Source of the DNA: a virus
IMG/VR virus record: IMGVR_UViG_3300033153_008530
Location: 1 to 64,000 of that record
DNA length: 64,000 nucleotides
Reading direction: 5' to 3' (one strand)
How positions within the stretch are numbered: position 1 is the first letter of the stretch; each line of letters begins with the position of its first letter. Under the pieces are notes generated by a model. The model made no database searches. It was not told the DNA's origin and worked only from the letters and a program-made list of their open reading frames with translations. The position numbers and the translations under genes are program-made. Positions 1,090 to 49,000 of the stretch are shown one piece after another.

Positions 1090-3210
1090 TTAAACTGGTG
1101 TATCTTCTTTTCTATCAGCTTCTTCCATATTATAACTTACTATATTACTGTTACTATTAGGTGCTTCTCCTACTCTATAAGTAGCTACAGTATTCTGACT
1201 TAAAGCGTTATTAGCACCATTAGGACTAAAACCGCTTAAATTAAAATTACCACTACCAGCTCCTCCAAAAGATGCTACTGCATCAGCACTCCCTATTTGA
1301 TCTGGTAAATCCCAATTTGATCCAACTGTATTGTATATAGCTTTATCTGCTCTCCAATATGCCACTGGACTATATGTAGATTCATCTACAGGTTCACCTA
1401 AGTTGAATAAAGCAACAGCATTTGAAGATTGATCAGTATTATATATTGCTGCAGTTGCGTGATTTCCTCTACATATAGAAGTTACACCATTACTCATTAT
1501 ACCTGATGTTGTTTGTATATTGTCTATACTTAAACTTCCTATAGTGTTAGTGTTTTCTAAATCACCATCTACATATATTTTTAAATCTCCACCATCATAG
1601 ACACCTAAAATATGATGCCAACCATCTTGAGTATTTGTAGTACCTGTTACTGTGTAGGCAGTTCCTCCACTTCTTATAACAAAAGAAGGTGTTGAACTAC
1701 TTTGTAATAAAGAATAATCTTGAGTGGTTTGGTTGTCACCTTTAACAAATAAATATGAACTTCCACCGCTTTCATAATTATTATACACCCAATAACTAAT
1801 AGATAATGGAGCTGCTGTTATTTGTAATGATGCTGGATTCCCGCTAATAGCTATATTTGCCCCAGTAATTAAAGCAGAACCAAATGAATAATTACCCACT
1901 TTATTTACGTTCTTTTGTTCAGTGCAAAAGAAAGGACCATCATGTAAACGTGATTCATCACCTAATTTCCACCAATTATCTGGATTTAAGTCTGTAAGAT
2001 CAGGTGGAGTACCTCCCCCATAAATCTCTGCAATATTAGCTATTTGATTACTTTTCCATATCGCTAATCCAGACATTAATCCTTCAAAACCATAATAATT
2101 AGGCGCACCATTTGAATAGGTACCTATACTACTCCATGCATATGTAGGATTTAACGATGAATCAATATTACCTGCAAATGTTATAGCTTGTGGAGCACCA
2201 TTTATATAACATTTAAGTCTACCAGCATTCTGTGTAGCTGGATCTCCATCTATAAATGTTCCATCGTAAAAGAAAGTTATATTATACCAATCATCAAGGG
2301 GAAAACCAGAACCAACAGCGAAATCTACTATTCCATTGTTACCAGCACCACTACTAAAGTATATATCAGCTCCAATTAAAGCAACAAAAAAGTCATTACT
2401 ACCTCCTTCACAAAAATATAATCCTTTCCATCCTAAATCATTCTTTTTAGTTATCCATATAGAAAATGTAAGTTTTGTAGTTGCAGGAGGAATTATATCT
2501 AAAGCAGCATTGGGTAATACAAAAGTAGTTCCTACACTATCAAAATACATAGAATAATTTTGAGATTTATCTTTATTAGCTTCTGCTGGTAATAACCATT
2601 GCTTTCTTAAAAATCTTCCATTATCCCCCATTCTATACCACACAATAGGCGGTGTTGTCATTGAATTTAAATCCGCAGTTGTATCAGCACTAGTAGTTAA
2701 TTCATAATCAAAAAACGCTAATTCATCTAATTTTCCAGCAAAAGGATATGGAGTTCCTGTTTTACGTTTTCCTATATAAAGTGGATTTGATCCAGGCGTA
2801 AGTGTAGTAGGAGTATTAGTACTTGTATAAACAGTTGTTCCAAGATTATCTGTTTGATGAAATGTAACACTACTTCCTTGATCTACTATTATAGCAACGT
2901 GAACCCATTTACCTGTTATTATAGGTGGTACAGATGACATAGTAATAGCTGGTCCAACATACATATACCAGCCTGATCCACCAGAAGAATAAAGTTCAAA
3001 AGTAACATTTAGTGCTTCAGAAAAAATAAATGATGTTATTGAAGCTGGCATATAATACCACAAGCTTATAGAGAATTCAGTTGATGCTGCTATTGTAGAA
3101 ATAGGAGAATCTGAAACTAACATATATTCATCTACACCATCAAACTCCATAGAATAGACATTCTCTAGACCTGCAGCAGCAGTCATATATCCAAAAGGAA
3201 GCGTTTTCAT
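1090..3210 (-). CDS. multi-LamG (three ConA-like domains) tail or receptor-binding protein
   Basis: Repeated FDG..Y / W.H / F.G.(L/M)DE / W(Y/W)(R/K)(M/L)GD signatures. Confidence 0.8.
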   Translation of the reverse strand: MKTLPFGYMTAAAGLENVYSMEFDGVDEYMLVSDSPISTIAASTEFSISLWYYMPASITSFIFSEALNVTFELYSSGGSGWYMYVGPAITMSSVPPIITGKWVHVAIIVDQGSSVTFHQTDNLGTTVYTSTNTPTTLTPGSNPLYIGKRKTGTPYPFAGKLDELAFFDYELTTSADTTADLNSMTTPPIVWYRMGDNGRFLRKQWLLPAEANKDKSQNYSMYFDSVGTTFVLPNAALDIIPPATTKLTFSIWITKKNDLGWKGLYFCEGGSNDFFVALIGADIYFSSGAGNNGIVDFAVGSGFPLDDWYNITFFYDGTFIDGDPATQNAGRLKCYINGAPQAITFAGNIDSSLNPTYAWSSIGTYSNGAPNYYGFEGLMSGLAIWKSNQIANIAEIYGGGTPPDLTDLNPDNWWKLGDESRLHDGPFFCTEQKNVNKVGNYSFGSALITGANIAISGNPASLQITAAPLSISYWVYNNYESGGSSYLFVKGDNQTTQDYSLLQSSSTPSFVIRSGGTAYTVTGTTNTQDGWHHILGVYDGGDLKIYVDGDLENTNTIGSLSIDNIQTTSGIMSNGVTSICRGNHATAAIYNTDQSSNAVALFNLGEPVDESTYSPVAYWRADKAIYNTVGSNWDLPDQIGSADAVASFGGAGSGNFNLSGFSPNGANNALSQNTVATYRVGEAPNSNSNIVSYNMEEADRKEDTPV

Positions 3211-3695
3211 TAAACGTAATCTTGAGTTATTACACCTCTTATTGTTGTCCCATCATAAACAAGAGTAACAATATCAATTCTATTTGCTATTAATGTGATT
3301 ACTGGAGCAGCACCTGTTGGCCATCCAACTCCAGTCAATGTTGCCACACCATTTGCTGTTGTATTCTGTTTAATATATACAATATTAGTTCCTATAGATA
3401 ACCCAGTAAAATTAATTGTATAAGGACCAGCTCCATCTGGAAGAGTAATACTAAAATAATCTGCTAAAGATAAATTAGCTGTAAAAGTAGTTCCTACAGC
3501 AGGAACAGTAATCAAACTAGATCCTCCAGTTATATCTCTAACTCTTACCAATCTTGTTCTCATTGATGCTTGGGTAGTAGAATGAATATTCCCCACACCC
3601 GTTTGTCCTACCAACAAAAAGTCATTATCCTTTGGGTTACTAATAATCTGTTTGTTTCTAAATAGACCTACAAAGTCTGATATTACATTGCTCAT
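3210..3695 (-). CDS. tail-fibre-associated beta-rich protein
   Basis: Thr/Gly-rich beta-type C-terminal domain (WPTGAAPVIT...DIVTLVYDG); overlaps the next gene by 1 nt. Confidence 0.55.
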   Translation of the reverse strand: MSNVISDFVGLFRNKQIISNPKDNDFLLVGQTGVGNIHSTTQASMRTRLVRVRDITGGSSLITVPAVGTTFTANLSLADYFSITLPDGAGPYTINFTGLSIGTNIVYIKQNTTANGVATLTGVGWPTGAAPVITLIANRIDIVTLVYDGTTIRGVITQDYV

Positions 3696-3999: not shown

Positions 4000-4188
4000 A
4001 TGAAATTATTACGTTTCTTTCTTATATGGTATTCACAAAACCTGGCTATACCTTTCTGGATCATAGGACACGTACACTTAAGCCTTAATAACTACCATGA
4101 CCTTATAGAAATTACAAGCTCAATAATGATGCATATTGCAGTTGCCGTAGGATTTTATCTTGACTGGACGGACCACAAGAACAACTAA
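4000..4188 (+). CDS. small membrane protein
   Basis: ATG at 4000, MKLLRFFLIWYSQNLAIPFW..., two hydrophobic segments. Confidence 0.6.
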   Translation: MKLLRFFLIWYSQNLAIPFWIIGHVHLSLNNYHDLIEITSSIMMHIAVAVGFYLDWTDHKNN

Positions 4189-4288
4189 CCTATAGAAAAA
4201 AGTTATGCACGTGAAGATTTAGTGGGTCCCTATGATGAAAAAATATTTTTCAAAAAGTTTTGCCCCACCCCCCATTGTTTTGTGAAGG

Positions 4289-4298
4289 CAACTCCTTA
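4289..4298 (+). promoter_or_regulatory. early cassette motif CAACTCCTTA (copy 1), putative virion-RNAP promoter
   Basis: One of eight intergenic copies; starts 42 nt before ATG 4331. Confidence 0.65.
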
Positions 4299-4330
4299 TT
4301 TCAATCAAATAATAACAAAAAACCTCTGCT

Positions 4331-4594
4331 ATGAAAAATAAAGTCTTCTCTCTTCTCTTGTTATCATATGTTATATCATTGATATGTTTGATAACATTCT
4401 TATGTTATGATTACTTCTTTGCTTACAATGTTACATTGTTTATTATGTGTGTACAAGTTCTATTGCTTGGTCTTATATATGCTATTAAGATACGTAAAGA
4501 TAATGAAGTTATAGTACCTGAAGTACTACCACCAACACACATTACACTAGCTGACTGGCATAGGAAGTGGAACAAGAATAGGAAGGCTCAGTAA
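4331..4594 (+). CDS. early two-TM membrane protein
   Basis: Two hydrophobic helices and a basic tail; framed by the motif and a hairpin. Confidence 0.7.
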   Translation: MKNKVFSLLLLSYVISLICLITFLCYDYFFAYNVTLFIMCVQVLLLGLIYAIKIRKDNEVIVPEVLPPTHITLADWHRKWNKNRKAQ

Positions 4595-4613
4595 GCCTTT
4601 CTGTTTTGTGTTA

Positions 4614-4623
4614 CAACTCCTTG
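4614..4623 (+). promoter_or_regulatory. early cassette motif CAACTCCTTG (copy 2)
   Basis: Follows hairpin 4583-4600; heads an ORF-less cassette. Confidence 0.6.
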
Positions 4624-4627
4624 TTAA

Positions 4628-4809
4628 TAGTAGACCTAATTCCTCTTTTATCTCAATGAAGAGATAATTGAACTGATGTGGGAATGGAGGGTAATGGAGG
4701 CATCCATCATATGGAAAAGCAGAGGCTTTCACCTTATTGCTTTGGTGATGTAAGGACCGTAAACAGCTTTAGCAGGCACACTAAGCACCCATTAATTTGG
4801 GTGCTTTTT
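4628..4809 (+). ncRNA. candidate ~180-nt structured non-coding RNA
   Basis: Lies between motif copy 2 and terminator 4783-4809. No credible ORF, raised GC, several hairpins (TTATCTC/GAGATAA, ATTCC/GGAAT, AAAGC/GCTTT, TCACC/GGTGA). Confidence 0.45.
4783..4809 (+). terminator. intrinsic terminator
   Basis: AAGCACCCA-ttaatt-TGGGTGCTT followed by a T run. Confidence 0.75.
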
Positions 4810-4816
4810 ACTAAAC

Positions 4817-4826
4817 CAACTCCTTA
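4817..4826 (+). promoter_or_regulatory. early cassette motif CAACTCCTTA (copy 3)
   Basis: 4817-4856 is 35/40 identical to 5032-5071. Confidence 0.65.
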
Positions 4827-4853
4827 TTATACTTAATCTTTAAACTTTATATT

Positions 4854-5006
4854 ATGACGATAGAAAGCACAGCAACTGCAATCATTGATGGTATTATAAC
4901 TACTATCCAGATCCTACGCTATTCTGATGGCAAACGTTCTAAACGTTTTTATCAGAAAGGTAGACTCACTGATGTAATTATCCTTGAACCTGAGAAGCCT
5001 ACATAG
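4854..5006 (+). CDS. 50-aa early protein
   Basis: Below the track cutoff: MTIESTATAIIDGIITTIQILRYSDGKRSKRFYQKGRLTDVIILEPEKPT; framed by the motif and hairpin 4993-5012. Confidence 0.6.
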   Translation: MTIESTATAIIDGIITTIQILRYSDGKRSKRFYQKGRLTDVIILEPEKPT

Positions 5007-5031
5007 GCTTCTTTCTTTGCATAATGTAAAA

Positions 5032-5041
5032 CAACTCCTTA
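5032..5041 (+). promoter_or_regulatory. early cassette motif CAACTCCTTA (copy 4)
   Basis: Follows hairpin 4993-5012; starts 37 nt before ATG 5069. Confidence 0.65.
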
Positions 5042-5068
5042 TTATTACTAATCCTTAAACTTAATATT

Positions 5069-5434
5069 ATGGCGTACAAATGTAAAATACCTTTTCGTGT
5101 TAGATATGTAGCACCAAGGAGAGGTAAACTTAAAAGCGAAATGCTTTATTACTGTTATTGGTACAATAATAAAGCATTAATGGTTAGAAGAGACTTAGAT
5201 GATAGTTTACCTCTTCTTAGACTTCCAATCTATCACTTTAAACACTATAAACCCAAATTACCACTATCTGCAGACCAACAAAGAGCACAACGCTTTAAAC
5301 TCAAAAGTACAGGTCATAGAAACATTGTAGAATACAATGAAATCAAACTTGCTGAACACGATAAAAAGTATGGCATTAATAGAGCTCAAAAGATAGCAGA
5401 ATATAATAATAAGGGTAAATCAAGAGAGTCTTAG
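5069..5434 (+). CDS. basic early protein of unknown function
   Basis: 121 aa, K/R/Y-rich; framed by the motif and terminator 5422-5446. Confidence 0.7.
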   Translation: MAYKCKIPFRVRYVAPRRGKLKSEMLYYCYWYNNKALMVRRDLDDSLPLLRLPIYHFKHYKPKLPLSADQQRAQRFKLKSTGHRNIVEYNEIKLAEHDKKYGINRAQKIAEYNNKGKSRES

Positions 5435-5460
5435 GGCTCTCTTTTTATTAAAACACAAGA

Positions 5461-5470
5461 CAACTCCCTA
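5461..5470 (+). promoter_or_regulatory. early cassette motif CAACTCCCTA (copy 5)
   Basis: Follows terminator 5422-5446; starts 29 nt before ATG 5490. Confidence 0.6.
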
Positions 5471-5489
5471 CTTAACCTAAATCAATACT

Positions 5490-5747
5490 ATGGCAACAAA
5501 AATCAAATACAATGTAGTGCACGGTAGACCCGTGGGTAAAGATAGTGAAGGTGCAACCATCTATAAAAACGTGCAAGTTGGCGTGGTTATGGAGAAAGAT
5601 GGCAGGTTCCTGCTTAAACTTAATTATCTGCCAGCTGAAGGAGCCTTGTTCTTCAACTTGTGGAAGCCTAAACCAAAGGCAGAACCAAAACCAGAACCTA
5701 AAGCAGAAGTAATTGCTGATGATGGAGATGATGAAGCACCATTCTAA
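5490..5747 (+). CDS. small SSB-like protein with an acidic C-terminal tail
   Basis: Beta-rich core, PK/EP linker, ends in DDGDDEAPF like an SSB C-terminal tip. Confidence 0.55.
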   Translation: MATKIKYNVVHGRPVGKDSEGATIYKNVQVGVVMEKDGRFLLKLNYLPAEGALFFNLWKPKPKAEPKPEPKAEVIADDGDDEAPF

Positions 5748-5753
5748 CAACTT

Positions 5754-5778
5754 GAGCCACTAACGTGGCTCTTTTTTT
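5754..5778 (+). terminator. intrinsic terminator
   Basis: GAGCCAC-taac-GTGGCTC followed by T7. Confidence 0.8.
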
Positions 5779-5782
5779 AACT

Positions 5783-5792
5783 CAACTCCTCA
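5783..5792 (+). promoter_or_regulatory. early cassette motif CAACTCCTCA (copy 6)
   Basis: Directly after the terminator; starts 35 nt before ATG 5818. Confidence 0.6.
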
Positions 5793-5817
5793 TTTTATTT
5801 AATTAAAATTAAATAAT

Positions 5818-5964
5818 ATGTATAAATATAGCATAAATGAAGTGATGCATTTCAGTCCTTCAAGGTCATTAGTAATGGGAATACTGAATACATCCAGTAA
5901 ACCCAAAAAGATTAAACTTCCAAGTAGGAAGAAGAGAAAGTTTAACAAAAGAAGGTCTAAATAG
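5818..5964 (+). CDS. 48-aa highly basic early protein
   Basis: Below the track cutoff: MYKYSINEVMHFSPSRSLVMGILNTSSKPKKIKLPSRKKRKFNKRRSK. Confidence 0.55.
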   Translation: MYKYSINEVMHFSPSRSLVMGILNTSSKPKKIKLPSRKKRKFNKRRSK

Positions 5965-5986
5965 GCCTTCTTAAAATCAATTAACT

Positions 5987-6289
5987 ATGAGTAATATAAA
6001 ATTTAAATTAGACTTCTGGGAACAAAGACAAAAACTACAAGTAACAGTTTGTGAAGAAGAAATATACACAGATAATGATGAAGACTTTACATATGATGAA
6101 CTTATTGCAAACAAACTTCGTCTAGGTTATGTAATAGTATATCAGTATTGGCATGCTGCAGTAGGTCAAGTAACAGTATTTGAACCTCAACGTCTCTTTG
6201 CAGATGAATCACTTCAGAGTGTACTTAATCAAGCACTTGAACCTGAAGATCCACGTGATTATCCAGAACCAACACTTGGTGAAGACTAA
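5987..6289 (+). CDS. acidic early protein of unknown function
   Basis: 100-aa ORF followed by terminator 6292-6315. Confidence 0.7.
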   Translation: MSNIKFKLDFWEQRQKLQVTVCEEEIYTDNDEDFTYDELIANKLRLGYVIVYQYWHAAVGQVTVFEPQRLFADESLQSVLNQALEPEDPRDYPEPTLGED

Positions 6290-6291
6290 CC

Positions 6292-6315
6292 AAAAGGCCT
6301 TAACGGCCTTTTTTT
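6292..6315 (+). terminator. intrinsic terminator
   Basis: AAAAGGCC-ttaac-GGCCTTTT plus further T residues. Confidence 0.8.
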
Positions 6316-6363
6316 GCAACCTTTAGCAGAGTAAGTGACTTAAGAGCAACATTAAGCACATAC

Positions 6364-6383
6364 TTTCTCTTTTCAACTCCTCA
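6364..6383 (+). promoter_or_regulatory. early cassette motif (copy 7) within the 18-bp direct repeat TTTCTCTTTTCAACTCCT
   Basis: 6364-6381 is identical to 6810-6827. Confidence 0.65.
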
Positions 6384-6391
6384 TTTATTTT

Positions 6392-6778
6392 GTACAACAA
6401 CACCAAAAAGGTTTGCAAGCCTTTTTGTGGTCTTTGGCTGAATAATACTTTGTATAGAGGTATAAGGCACATTGATTAGAGGACACTCTGCAGGTATTAG
6501 GAATCTAATATCTGACTGTTTAGCAACAGAATTAAATGGTGAAATTTGTAGGCAACAGATCTAAAGCATCTATAAACGTTAGTAACTTGAATTAGGCGTG
6601 ATACCCATCAAGTGCACATTATCCTGTAGCGGGAATTTCAATGATAGTTCAAGAGCAGTCTTGCGGAGAACTATTGAGAGATATTTTGTAGTTAGTGTGT
6701 TAACGTAGATAAGACCTATATCATCAAATATTTGCAGGGAAAACTTAATCCTGTAAGACCACGTTGTTGTGCTTTTTT
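6392..6778 (+). ncRNA. candidate ~385-nt multi-domain structured non-coding RNA, class not recognised
   Basis: No ORF. The ends pair (6392-6401 with 6763-6772; 6428-6434 with 6755-6761), there are many nested helices, the early motif lies upstream and a T6 run follows. Confidence 0.65.
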
Positions 6779-6809
6779 AGTAAAGTTAAAAGACAACCTT
6801 AAAAAACTA

Positions 6810-6829
6810 TTTCTCTTTTCAACTCCTTA
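6810..6829 (+). promoter_or_regulatory. early cassette motif (copy 8) within the 18-bp direct repeat
   Basis: CAACTCCTTA at 6820, followed by 5'-leader hairpin 6837-6863 and ATG 6893. Confidence 0.65.
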
Positions 6830-6892
6830 CTATACCTGCGTCTATAAAAGTTATAGGTGCGCAACTAATCTAACATAATAAATTATATTACT

Positions 6893-7378
6893 ATGGCAGT
6901 AAATACAAGCCTTAAAGCATCTTGCATAAATACTTATAGCAAGTTAGACAGGAATCAGAATCCTATAGACGTATTCGTCTACAAAATCACTGGTACTAAA
7001 TCAGCGTTAGCACGTTATGAAGAACTCCAAGGAGATAATTATCGTGAAGACGAAGAGACAGGTGACGTCTTGTTCTTCTCTACAAGATATTTTGGAGAGA
7101 GTGGTAACATCATCATTACAGCAAATGATAAAATTGCACCTGATTTAAGTAGCGTTAAGAAACAAGCATCTCTTGTAAATCAGTTTGGAGGTCAAATTGG
7201 TGAGGCTTTAGCACAGAAAATAGCAGATCAACTGCTTGGTGTGAAAGCAACAACACCACCTGCTGAAACTCCTGTTGTGACAGAGAGTGAAGATAAGGCA
7301 GAAGAAGAGATAGTAGATGAGGTGGAAGAAAGTGAAGTTGATGAAACTATAGATGAAGATGCAGATTTTAATGCATAA
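6893..7378 (+). CDS. early protein with a long acidic C-terminal tail
   Basis: 161 aa; D/E-rich tail ending in EDADFNA. Confidence 0.75.
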   Translation: MAVNTSLKASCINTYSKLDRNQNPIDVFVYKITGTKSALARYEELQGDNYREDEETGDVLFFSTRYFGESGNIIITANDKIAPDLSSVKKQASLVNQFGGQIGEALAQKIADQLLGVKATTPPAETPVVTESEDKAEEEIVDEVEESEVDETIDEDADFNA

Positions 7379-7396
7379 TCAGATATTAAATGGAAT

Positions 7397-7422
7397 AAGG
7401 GTGTGTAATAGCACCCTTTTTT
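7397..7422 (+). terminator. intrinsic terminator
   Basis: AAGGGTG...CACCCTT followed by a T run. Confidence 0.7.
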
Positions 7423-7608
7423 GTTTATTTTTTTAGTTTCCAAGTTTATTCATTACATTACTTACTGAATTTCAAAGCATAAATACAAAAAAAGAACTTT
7501 GAGACGCAAAGAGCTTTGATTGAGAAACCCTCTACATACGTACTATAATATAGTCAGTCAATACTAAATTACTATATTATATATAATACTATTATAATAT
7601 ATATAGCT

Positions 7609-46055: not shown

Positions 46056-49000
46056 TTATGCTAAACATTTGTTTTTTAATTCTTGAATTTCATAATCACT
46101 AATAGGTTGATCTTTTTGGATTATGGCTCTTATACTGGTAGATCTTAATGATCCAGGATTAATATAACCAAATTTATCATAAAGTTTACTAGATAAGTGA
46201 ACATATGTTTTTCTTGATTTTACATTATCTAACAATTCTTTACCATATCCAGTTTTAATTAAGGCAATAGAATTGTTTCCCTTCATTAAATTAGCTATCT
46301 TATCAATAGCATTATCAATTAAGATCTTGTTTTCTTCTAATGTTTCATCAGTCATCATCTTTCCATCGTTTATTAATGGGATACCAAGACTGTTATCAAA
46401 CTCACTTAATGATTCATCTCTTCCTTTTTTTCCTCTCTCATTATATATAAAGGTTACTCCACCACTCTGAGTTGCTAAAACTTCATATTTACTTGATGAT
46501 GTTTGTGCATCATATATATAAACATCTTTAGTTTTATACTTTTTTAAGGGTATTCCTTCTTTAACTGGTACTTTCTGCTCAGATGTCATGGTACTTGCCA
46601 AAGTTTTATCAATCATATAATTTTTAGAGCGCATGTTTAATGATTTAGTTATTGCCCTATTCATTGTTATCATTCTATTTGTATAAAGTGTAAGAATCTC
46701 TTCATTTAGATTCTTAATATATGATTCATAAGGACCTTTAAGAAGTAATAATATATTACGTTGATCAATAATCCTAGTCATTGAGAGTGGGCTCTTTGTA
46801 TTTAACCCGGATTGTAAGAAGGCGTAGTAGTTAAATCTCTGAAAGAAGTTAGTTATTTTTAATTTATCCTCTGGATCATCTATTTTTATTTCACTTGGAT
46901 TACTAAGTTCTAGTAGATTCTCATGATAAACCTCTACTGTATCTGGGTCTAAAACAGTTTCTTTCAGTTTCAAGTTCTTTATTCTTTCACCAGGCTTTGC
47001 TTTTGATTGGATAATACTTTCCATTAATGGATAATCTCTTGATAATGAGGGATATTTAGCTTTAATATCCATAAACTGATTAACCATACTATTATGTCCA
47101 TAGAACATATTTCTAATATTAAGAGTATTGTCAAGAGCTTTGTCACGTAGTATCTCTTCGTAAGTGAGTAATTTCATTCTCTTCTCATACATGTTATCAG
47201 TTTCTCCTTCTTGTCTTTCTGTTTCAATAGAATCAACTTGATTCATGTTTCTCTTAAGTTTTTCTTTAAATTCTTCTTTTTTACTTTCTTCTTTAAAAGA
47301 AATAATACTTCTTAAGTATTCTCTTTCATATATAAATTTGTAAAATTCTTTTTCACTTAAAACATCTCTTGTTTTAAAAGCATCTGGAGTGAGAAGAGCA
47401 TGTCCTGATAACACCCATTCTTTCTTTACACCTTTTCCTTCTTTGTTAATCTTCTGCACCCATCTAACTCTTTTATTTTGGTCTGCATATGTTTTGTTCT
47501 TAAACATATCATTAAGAGCTTCTTTGTTAACATATAATACATTATCTTTTACATAAGCGCCTACAGTTAATACATCTACTTCTTCAACTCCAATCTTATC
47601 ATTAACTGTTAGACTTCTATATTCTTTTGTATTCTTATTAAAACCTTTTATTGAATTTTGGAATATAAAGCTTACAAGATCATTTTTCCATGCAGCAACA
47701 AACTTCTCTTGTTCATTCTGACCATAGGTTGTTCTTACTGCACCTTTTCCAGCGGCTGTATCCAAAAAGTCATATAAGAATTTATTAACTAATTCATGAT
47801 TACGAAGTGGGAAATATTTACTCCATACCTCTTCTTGAAAGTCAGGTACTGAGGCAAATGAAGATATTGGACTTTCTGTAAGCAATCTATCTAAAGGTCC
47901 TCTTGGAAACAATCCATATTTGTTAATTGTTCTCATGTTTCTTCTTCTCTCCTGAACATTATATAAAGAGGCTGCGGGATCTGTATCTAAATTTGTATTA
48001 AGTTTTACATCACGTACAGAACCAGCTATTAATTCTAACTCAATAAAGTGTAAGAATGCATCTCGTGCTGTATCATTAACAGTTCCATTTAATGCAATCT
48101 CTTTAAGTTTAGCAGGATTAAAGTTTGATGTACGTCTCTGAGCTGTAAGAAGTATGTTTGGTACACTAGGTGTATTCGTTGCATCTAACCCTAATGTGGA
48201 ATAATTATCAAATCCATTACGTGCAATTACATTTACCTTTGCTTGATATCTAGTATACTGAGTTTCATCAGGGGCCATTCCTAGAGGCATTGAAAATGAG
48301 CTACTCATAATTCTCTGTTCCTTTACGTACTCTTTTATAAGAGGATTAGAAAGGAACATAACTGCGTCAGTCAATGATACACCTGATTCAACTAATAATA
48401 ATAATATAGGTGTTAACTCAGTATTACCCTGAAGATGAAAAATCCAAGGATCTTTTTCAACATCAACCCAACCATTTATTAATTGTTCTAGTATTTGAGC
48501 TATTTCAACACCGTCTACATTATTTATATTAGATAAAGATATTACGTCATTCTTACCAACTTTAAAAGTATTATGATCTAATAAGATTCTTGTATTAAAC
48601 TCACTCTTGTCTCTCATAAAAGTTGGCATTAAATACATACCTACTCTATTAAATAATGCATTATAAGTATTTGCAATTGCTCCTTGTCCTAATGTCTTTT
48701 TACCAACGTTAAAGGCCTCATGAATATCTGTATTAAATCCTATTTCTAATATTTTTGTATGACTAATGTTTTCTGCTTCTTCACCACGTATCTGATCTAC
48801 AACATCCATTGCAAGATGATTTGAGTTTGGACGAACAAGACTTATAAAGTTATGTGGTAATTCAAGAATTTCTTTCATCTTATACATTATCTCATTCTCC
48901 ACTCCTCTAACACCTTCAGTAGATAAAATTACTTCACCTTCTTTATTTCTTCTAATATTAGGCATCATTATAGTTAACTTGTCTATGTCAAAATCAGAAC

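Follow-up and report, generated by a model that had tools for sequence, protein, structure and literature searches.

A probable enlarged manA-type RNA in the early region of an uncultured marine crAss-like phage

The source record is an 87-kb IMG/VR virus with a completeness rating of 72 %, and we analysed its first 64 kb (the window, meaning the whole 64,000-nt stretch). The window has a GC content of ~30 % and carries two long gene blocks on opposite strands, with giant ORFs of 3086, 3584 and 1754 aa on the minus strand. In the 3584-aa protein, 600 residues around a DFDID motif (Table 1) are similar to the polymerase ORF (2184 aa) of the crAss-like Cellulophaga phage phi14:2 (39 % identity around the motif, E value 2e-13), corresponding to the catalytic motif region of phi14:2 gp66, and the same flanking residues also match a 4740-aa ORF from a 120-kb relative. 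Because of these two matches, the source virus is, as judged from sequence, a crAss-like phage with a virion-type RNA polymerase. PHROGs returned a single weak exonuclease-family match for the three giant proteins, on the 3584-aa protein, and a helicase scan yielded just two loci. The early proteins had no match in Pfam or PHROGs, and the small proteins flanking the RNA described below had no relatives in IMG/VR. Contigs at least 99 % identical to positions 5700–7500 come from sediment, marine-sediment, hydrothermal-vent and marine metagenomes of four studies; the phage is an uncultured, marine one. No RNA run was listed among the sequencing runs that contain the sequence, and the contigs from four DNA runs (at least 99 % identical) differ within the RNA by two SNPs and one doubtful 1-nt deletion.

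A row of small plus-strand units occupies 4.2–6.9 kb, each headed by the motif CAACTCCTYAT. Seven plus-strand copies fall within 4289–6830, and the motif has 12 matches window-wide against 2.6 expected. The copies lie mostly 35–73 nt before an ATG and 3′ of a terminator, and hairpin-plus-T terminators close most of the early units (10 found, 1.1 expected). The motif is a candidate promoter of the injected phage polymerase. It is not kept in relatives at 54–69 % polymerase identity; a closer metagenomic relative, L135, retains CAACTCCT. One further early unit (4628–4809) is preceded by a motif copy of its own (4614) and contains, as its sole ORF, a short and doubtful one; a 387-nt segment starting at 4592 folds at z = −3.2, and 4628–4809 may represent a second small RNA. 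The 161-aa early protein encoded downstream of the RNA (6893–7378) belongs to no Pfam or PHROG family. Its C-terminal end is a long acidic stretch (...DEDADFNA), which all three relatives conserve and which recalls the acidic tails of phage single-strand-binding or DNA-mimic proteins.

Table 1. Positions of the polymerase motif, the early-region signals and the elements of the RNA unit in the window
Feature	Position	Strand	Description
DFDID motif	48981–48995	−	Residues 2606–2610 of the 3584-aa protein
Early-cassette motif CAACTCCTYAT	4289, 4614, 4817, 5032, 5783, 6374, 6820	+	Pattern count
Left 18-bp repeat plus motif CAACTCCTCAT	6364–6384 (repeat 6364–6381, motif 6374–6384)	+	Candidate promoter of the RNA cassette
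10-bp terminal clamp	6392–6401/6763–6772	+	MFE; 5′ strand identical in L134
P0 hairpin before P1	6404–6427	+	MFE; position of the first hairpin of the manA model
P1 helix UGGUCUU/AAGACCA	6428–6434/6755–6761	+	MFE; followed by 2-nt spacer UG
P2 module	6437–6470	+	GCUGAAUAAU (6437–6446), hairpin (6447–6461), AUAAGGCAC (6462–6470)
P3 domain	6472–6535	+	Stem 6472–6477/6530–6535; hairpins 6477–6490, 6491–6514 and 6516–6529
GGUG junction after P3	6538–6541	+	Conserved in most listed manA RNAs
Enlarged P4 arm, ~190 nt, branched	6542–6731	+	Long stem; three-way tip (hairpin 6585–6613, arm 6614–6698)
P5 hairpin	6734–6754	+	GCAGGG...AAUCCUGU (loop ending AAU, CCUGU); directly abuts P1′
Clamp 3′ strand plus U6	6763–6778 (6763–6772, 6773–6778)	+	Identical in L134; likely transcript end
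Right 18-bp repeat plus next motif copy	6810–6830 (repeat 6810–6827)	+	Candidate promoter of the 161-aa gene

One of these units, at 6392–6778, lacks a gene. It holds no ORF longer than 36 aa on either strand, and the two short ORFs present (30 and 36 aa) are lost or truncated in L134, a metagenomic relative whose copy of the RNA is 94 % identical and differs from the window by indels of 1, 3, 1 and 1 nt. Since the short ORFs are not kept and the indels do not run in multiples of three, the unit is, on this comparison, a non-coding, gene-free folded RNA unit. The initial annotation had described it as a large, structured plus-strand RNA without an ORF, and both the fold and the lost ORFs support that description. 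The same holds for its claim that the RNA has a cassette of its own: the motif CAACTCCTCAT starts 18 nt upstream of the RNA (6374 versus 6392), the unit closes with a clamp and a U6 tract (T6 in the DNA) that ends 115 nt before the 161-aa gene, likewise on the plus strand, and a further motif copy follows shortly downstream. The 18-bp direct repeats that had been noted on either side proved to be exact copies. The U6 tract is preceded by a long-range helix rather than a local hairpin, and termination there is assumed. The immediate-early timing that had been proposed is inferred from the position of the unit and its motif.

Unconstrained folding of 6392–6778 gave a minimum free energy (MFE) of −106.1 kcal/mol. 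Nearly all helices previously drawn by eye recur in the MFE structure, including the side hairpin now labelled P0 and most of what had been called domain 2, but the TCCTG/CGGGA helix was re-paired. The expectation that the RNA would fold better than shuffled controls was borne out in itself (z = −3.96 on the plus strand and −2.51 on the minus strand), yet neighbouring 387-nt segments of the same early region scored as low (z = −5.2, −4.0 and −3.8, driven by terminators and hairpins). We therefore rejected the folding z-score as a discriminator: because adjacent early segments fold similarly well, stability alone does not single out 6392–6778. Enforcing the closing stem of P3 costs 2.3 kcal/mol. 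The P0 loop contains the palindrome UUGCAA (6413–6418), which is kept in L134 despite a change at 6412, and a natural variant (6759 C>T) converts a G-C pair of P1 to G-U.

In the window, every Rfam family stayed below its gathering score; this includes group I and II introns, RNase P, ROOL, GOLLD, OLE, raiA, HEARO and small ribozymes. ARAGORN found no tRNA or tmRNA in the window, and the Rfam tmRNA model had no match at E ≤ 10 in 6200–6950. These results agree with the initial annotation, in which tmRNA, RNase P and intron signatures had not been seen, and the tmRNA reading, a candidate suggested by phi14:2, was rejected on the same grounds. At E ≤ 10, the Rfam matches within 6200–6950 were manA and a chance mir-15 match only, with no match inside the P4 arm.

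The manA match (RF01745), obtained in a permissive search, spans 6414–6572 and scores 22.7 bits against a gathering cut-off of 55.2 (E value 7e-4 for the region and 3.5e-5 for the genome); the L134 copy scores 25.5 bits. The RF01745 model was built independently of the window sequence. Its alignment was driven by the P2 module, which was aligned with top posterior probability, and by the stem closing the three P3 hairpins. Only the 5′ half of the RNA was aligned, and P1′ was misplaced on account of a large insertion; the score stays below the Rfam cut-off because P4 is enlarged about five-fold.

The full manA consensus runs in the order P0, P1, P2 module, multi-hairpin P3, GGUG, a P4 of ~36 nt, P5 (GGUA...AAUCC), P1′ and AC. 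When the window RNA was read against this order by position, the P2 module showed CUGAAUAA, a hairpin and then UAAGG, closed by two base pairs. P1 leaves 2 nt between its 5′ strand and the P2 module, and its 3′ strand abuts P5 and is followed by AC if the final U-A pair is left open. The P3 stem surrounds three hairpins and is followed by GGUG, and P5 follows the pattern GG(U)A...AAUCC, with G where the consensus has U. The main departure is P4, where a branched domain of ~190 nt takes the place of a single ~36-nt hairpin with an internal loop. Loop sequences also deviate, in that the P0 loop reads UUGCAA/UGCA where manA usually has a GACG-type loop, and the Rfam consensus loops GUGGUG and ACCA in P3 and GACG in P0 are not kept; the third P3 loop (UUAGCA) is close to the UUAGCG seen in loops of viral manA RNAs. 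Nor does the locus have the layout of a 5′ UTR, given its own motif, its clamp with U6 and a second promoter copy before the next ORF.

The initial annotation had ranked the unit as the best candidate for an undescribed system and had pointed to Rfam as the test. The scan itself returned nothing at gathering score, but the manA architecture, which is matched almost base by base at P1, P2, the P3/P4 junction and P5, removes the claim of novelty. As far as sequence and predicted structure allow, the RNA falls outside RF01745 as currently defined and is an enlarged, uncatalogued manA-type variant of twice the usual size. The idea of a ‘double core’, i.e. a second manA core nested in P4, was rejected: local alignment of 6428–6541 against 6573–6712 scored below the shuffle mean, Rfam sees no second match, and 6585–6613 is only loosely P2-like by eye.

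We then used an 18-base signature from 6437–6470, with a free gap for the hairpin, as a fishing pattern against IMG/VR. It matched 45 viral contigs; on inspection by eye, 38 of them had UG in front of the signature, U behind it and a gap that forms a hairpin. RF01745 matched 27 of the 45 at E ≤ 0.1, 11 of them above the gathering score, and the scores formed a continuum from 78.6 down to 13 bits. As a control, among the 120 pattern matches listed from prokaryote genomes, two passed a scripted context test. Since 27 of the 45 IMG/VR contigs are RF01745 matches and 2 of the 120 listed prokaryote matches pass the context test, the signature in context is close to diagnostic for viral manA-type RNAs, many of which lie below the Rfam threshold. 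The P2 module is invariant in the MAFFT alignment of these RNAs (A5), an invariance that is partly built in, as the pattern was taken from the window RNA itself.

The likeness at the 3′ end, by contrast, is independent of the fishing pattern: MAFFT, which is blind to structure, aligns both ends of the RNA, P5 included, with manA RNAs, and a P5 pattern derived from other manA RNAs has four matches in 128 kb (0.47 expected), one of them abutting P1′. Of the 38 other viral-contig RNAs, 25 yielded a P1, and in 20 of these 25 the 2-nt spacing between its 5′ strand and the signature recurs; P1 sequences differ among these RNAs yet stay complementary. From signature to P1′ the window RNA measures 284 nt, versus ~97–162 nt in those other viral manA RNAs whose P1 is credible. 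BLAST showed no likeness beyond the P2 module between the window RNA and any of the 45 viral contigs bearing the signature, and blastn of the RNA against 50,697 cultured-phage records returned no match.

The other manA loci differ in their genomic settings. Many in IMG/VR have an ORF start 160–230 nt after the signature, and about a quarter of the viral manA RNAs sit between tRNAs. In several viral contigs (L148:5000–5331(−), L139, L154, L168 and L171), a canonical manA RNA is embedded in an array of tRNAs on its own strand, where a tRNA ends ~6 nt before manA P0 and the next starts right after the manA 3′ end; in L148, the order is tRNA, manA, tRNA with gaps of 0–7 nt. For manA within tRNA arrays, a processed free RNA would fit this arrangement better than a 5′-UTR regulator. 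L202 (= G051:17001–17236, minus strand) and L143 carry a 236-nt manA-type variant with an insertion in the P5 region that includes a tRNA T-arm-like GGUUCAAGUCC, an enlarged form in which a different arm is expanded.

The 161-aa protein has three relatives in public metagenomes, L134, L135 and L136. In L134, the protein is 96 % identical and the RNA is present at ~94 % nucleotide identity; both the promoter regions and the 3′-terminal 47 nt of the RNA are identical to the window. L135 (65 %) and L136 (52 %) agree with the window in the end of the upstream gene, the terminator and the downstream gene. The ~446 bp that the two 18-bp repeats enclose in the window are missing from both, and the promoter runs straight into the gene leader. 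Because both keep the flanking genes and miss the segment exactly between the promoter repeats, the RNA cassette is, as these comparisons indicate, an exchangeable unit, in line with the module suggested in the initial annotation. Among 45 further relatives (~4 Mb; DNA polymerase 54–69 % identical), there was no RF01745 match at E ≤ 1, and BLAST and nhmmer searches of the RNA against those relatives and their early regions gave chance matches inside coding DNA only. None of the 38 manA-bearing contigs tested carries a crAss-type polymerase. The cassette was probably acquired by this phage lineage.

Between the window and L134, the RNA has diverged by 5.5 %, compared with 11.8 % at third codon positions of the 161-aa gene, in which 19 of 26 substitutions fall at third positions. 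This slower divergence suggests some constraint on the RNA, in a region that is a recombination mosaic. A stretch of ~190 nt (6709–6892), comprising the RNA 3′ end, the second promoter and the gene leader, is 100 % identical to L134, with flanks that differ by 5–7 %; the patch points to recent recombination around the promoter repeat. When the 22 L134 substitutions were placed on the MFE structure computed from the window alone, 9–10 kept pairs and 7–8 broke them (permutation P = 0.22–0.45). As the sole RNA-bearing relative is 94 % identical and pairs are kept no better than at random, the P4 fold is unsupported by covariation. One possible compensatory change (6561/6708, C-G to U-A) lies beside an indel and is ambiguous. 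An RNAalifold consensus with L134, in which six of six paired changes keep pairing, was rejected as a measure of covariation on account of the bias of the consensus.

In Rfam and in Weinberg et al. 2010 (PMC2864571), manA is listed as probably a 5′-UTR element. More recently, manA RNAs were reported to form RNA-only cages of 8, 10 and 60 copies in vitro via kissing loops, and manA variants to have a common core fold but differing peripheral helices (bioRxiv 10.64898/2026.07.01.735769). Against this background, we favour, with a probability of roughly 60 %, the reading that 6392–6778 is a free-standing RNA of ~385 nt, a divergent and enlarged member of the manA lineage carried in an early cassette. 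The injected crAss-type RNA polymerase (the 3584-aa DFDID protein) would probably be the enzyme that transcribes the unit early, using the motif 18 nt upstream. A start ~18 nt after the beginning of the motif would place the 5′ strand of the clamp at the very 5′ end, and the transcript would end at U6 once the clamp closes, leaving both RNA ends paired. The product would act in trans as a stable RNA rather than as a gene leader. By analogy with the manA RNAs seen by cryo-EM, its copies may assemble with one another into a closed multimer, in which the enlarged P4 could serve as a peripheral arm that changes the geometry or offers a binding surface. In this context, the one feature of note is the palindromic P0 loop. 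A free RNA is preferred over a leader because of the second promoter copy, the relatives without the RNA and the manA RNAs found between tRNAs elsewhere.

A more far-reaching version, which we regard as clearly less likely than not, is that the enlarged manA RNA, driven by the injected polymerase and among the earliest products of the phage, self-assembles in the cell into an RNA-only shell or scaffold whose P4, a new module facing outward or inward, binds a host or phage component. This would provide the first biological setting for the in vitro manA cages and would make manA RNAs trans-acting particles rather than riboswitches. Among the roles put forward in the initial annotation, a scaffold is the best fit to the reported cages, whereas nothing points to a ribozyme or a decoy.

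The published 5′-UTR classification, the many IMG/VR loci with an ORF start 160–230 nt after the signature, and the helix followed by U6 located 115 nt before the next same-strand gene would all suit a cis-acting, riboswitch-like manA leader of the 161-aa gene, in which a ligand would govern whether P1 and the clamp close, and hence whether transcription terminates or continues into the gene. We consider this unlikely, given that an exact second promoter repeat separates the RNA from the 161-aa gene, that L135 and L136 run the same gene from that promoter without the RNA, that roughly one viral manA RNA in four, being placed between tRNAs, lacks a gene that it could regulate, and that manA has no known ligand. 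A decaying or neutral passenger is about as unlikely in our view. Such a recently recombined manA-type cassette would have no role, and its enlarged arm would be a junk insertion; its absence from L135, L136 and all 45 more distant relatives, the lack of significant covariation in P4 and the loss of several canonical manA loop motifs are consistent with this. At least four studies, however, have metagenomes in which the phage with the RNA occurs at ≥99 % identity, divergence of the RNA is half that at third codon positions of the next gene, the core helices, clamp and signature are intact in both copies, and the sole P1 SNP keeps its pair as G-U.

It is also conceivable that the RNA belongs to an unrelated new class and that its likeness to manA arose by chance or by convergence on a common structural module. 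The score below the Rfam gathering score, the restriction of BLAST matches to the 21-nt P2 module and the absence of a manA counterpart for P4 and the clamp would be compatible with this, but six features occupy manA relative positions (P0, P1 with its 2-nt offset, P2, P3 with GGUG, P5-P1′ and AC) and hardly any occurrence of the signature in its full context falls outside viral manA RNAs, making such a coincidence very hard to credit.

The reading as a free-standing, enlarged manA RNA bears on what has, from 2010 onwards, been an orphan family, catalogued as probably cis-regulatory and reported in 2026 to form RNA-only cages in vitro, to which no biological role is assigned. The window copy cannot be a simple 5′ leader, because it has its own start signal, an end-pairing clamp and a U-tract and is gained or lost as a whole unit among relatives; together with the tRNA-wedged manA RNAs, it supports treating the family as free-standing RNAs. 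It places a manA-type RNA in a crAss-like phage, from a virus group not known to carry manA, and in a genomic setting that is also unreported for the family. Positions 6392–6778 provide a defined construct for the effect of an enlarged peripheral arm on assembly, and at this locus the product assigned to a candidate promoter of the crAss-type virion polymerase is a non-coding one.

A precedent for early non-coding RNAs in a marine crAss-like phage comes from phi14:2, whose long ones are already abundant when first sampled (bioRxiv 10.1101/2020.03.07.982082). Like the window RNA, those from g004-g005 and g005-g006 are ORF-free, several hundred nucleotides long and encoded on the early-gene strand of a marine crAss-like phage, but they have no sequence or Rfam likeness to it. 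The g005-g006 RNA, the function of which was called undetermined (bioRxiv 10.1101/2020.03.07.982082), matches the tmRNA family RF00023 at 4031–4502 of the phi14:2 genome (L137, NC_021806) with 46.0 bits against a cut-off of 47 (E value 3e-16) and has a clear acceptor stem and T-arm. The other lncRNA region (2905–3590) folds no better than shuffles and has no manA match.

The cassette arrangement recalls the promoter-early stem-loop (PeSL) cassettes of T4-type phages, which shuffle genes as promoter-terminator modules (Arbiol et al. 2010, PMC2839356). In both cases, small units are arrayed with a repeated promoter and a terminator hairpin, and whole units are gained or lost at the repeats among relatives; the likeness is one of working and not of family membership. 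The signal differs, CAACTCCTYAT not being sigma-70-like and probably being read by the phage's own injected polymerase, as does the cargo, which is here an RNA gene.

ROOL, GOLLD, OLE and raiA RNAs form multimers. They share with the window RNA that they are large, ornate, often phage-borne free RNAs without an assigned function, and differ in that none of them matches by Rfam at E ≤ 10 within 6200–6950, the core here being manA-like.

The closest counterpart is manA (RF01745) itself, the best and only credible Rfam match for the window RNA, with which it shares the order and spacing of P0, P1, P2 module, P3, GGUG, P5 and P1′ as well as occurrence in marine phages. The window RNA departs from RF01745 in having a branched P4 of ~190 nt instead of a ~36-nt hairpin, an added 10-bp terminal clamp with U6 and other P0 and P3 loop sequences. 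It also lies in a promoter-terminator cassette of its own rather than in a 5′ UTR, and in a crAss-like virus rather than a T4-like cyanophage.
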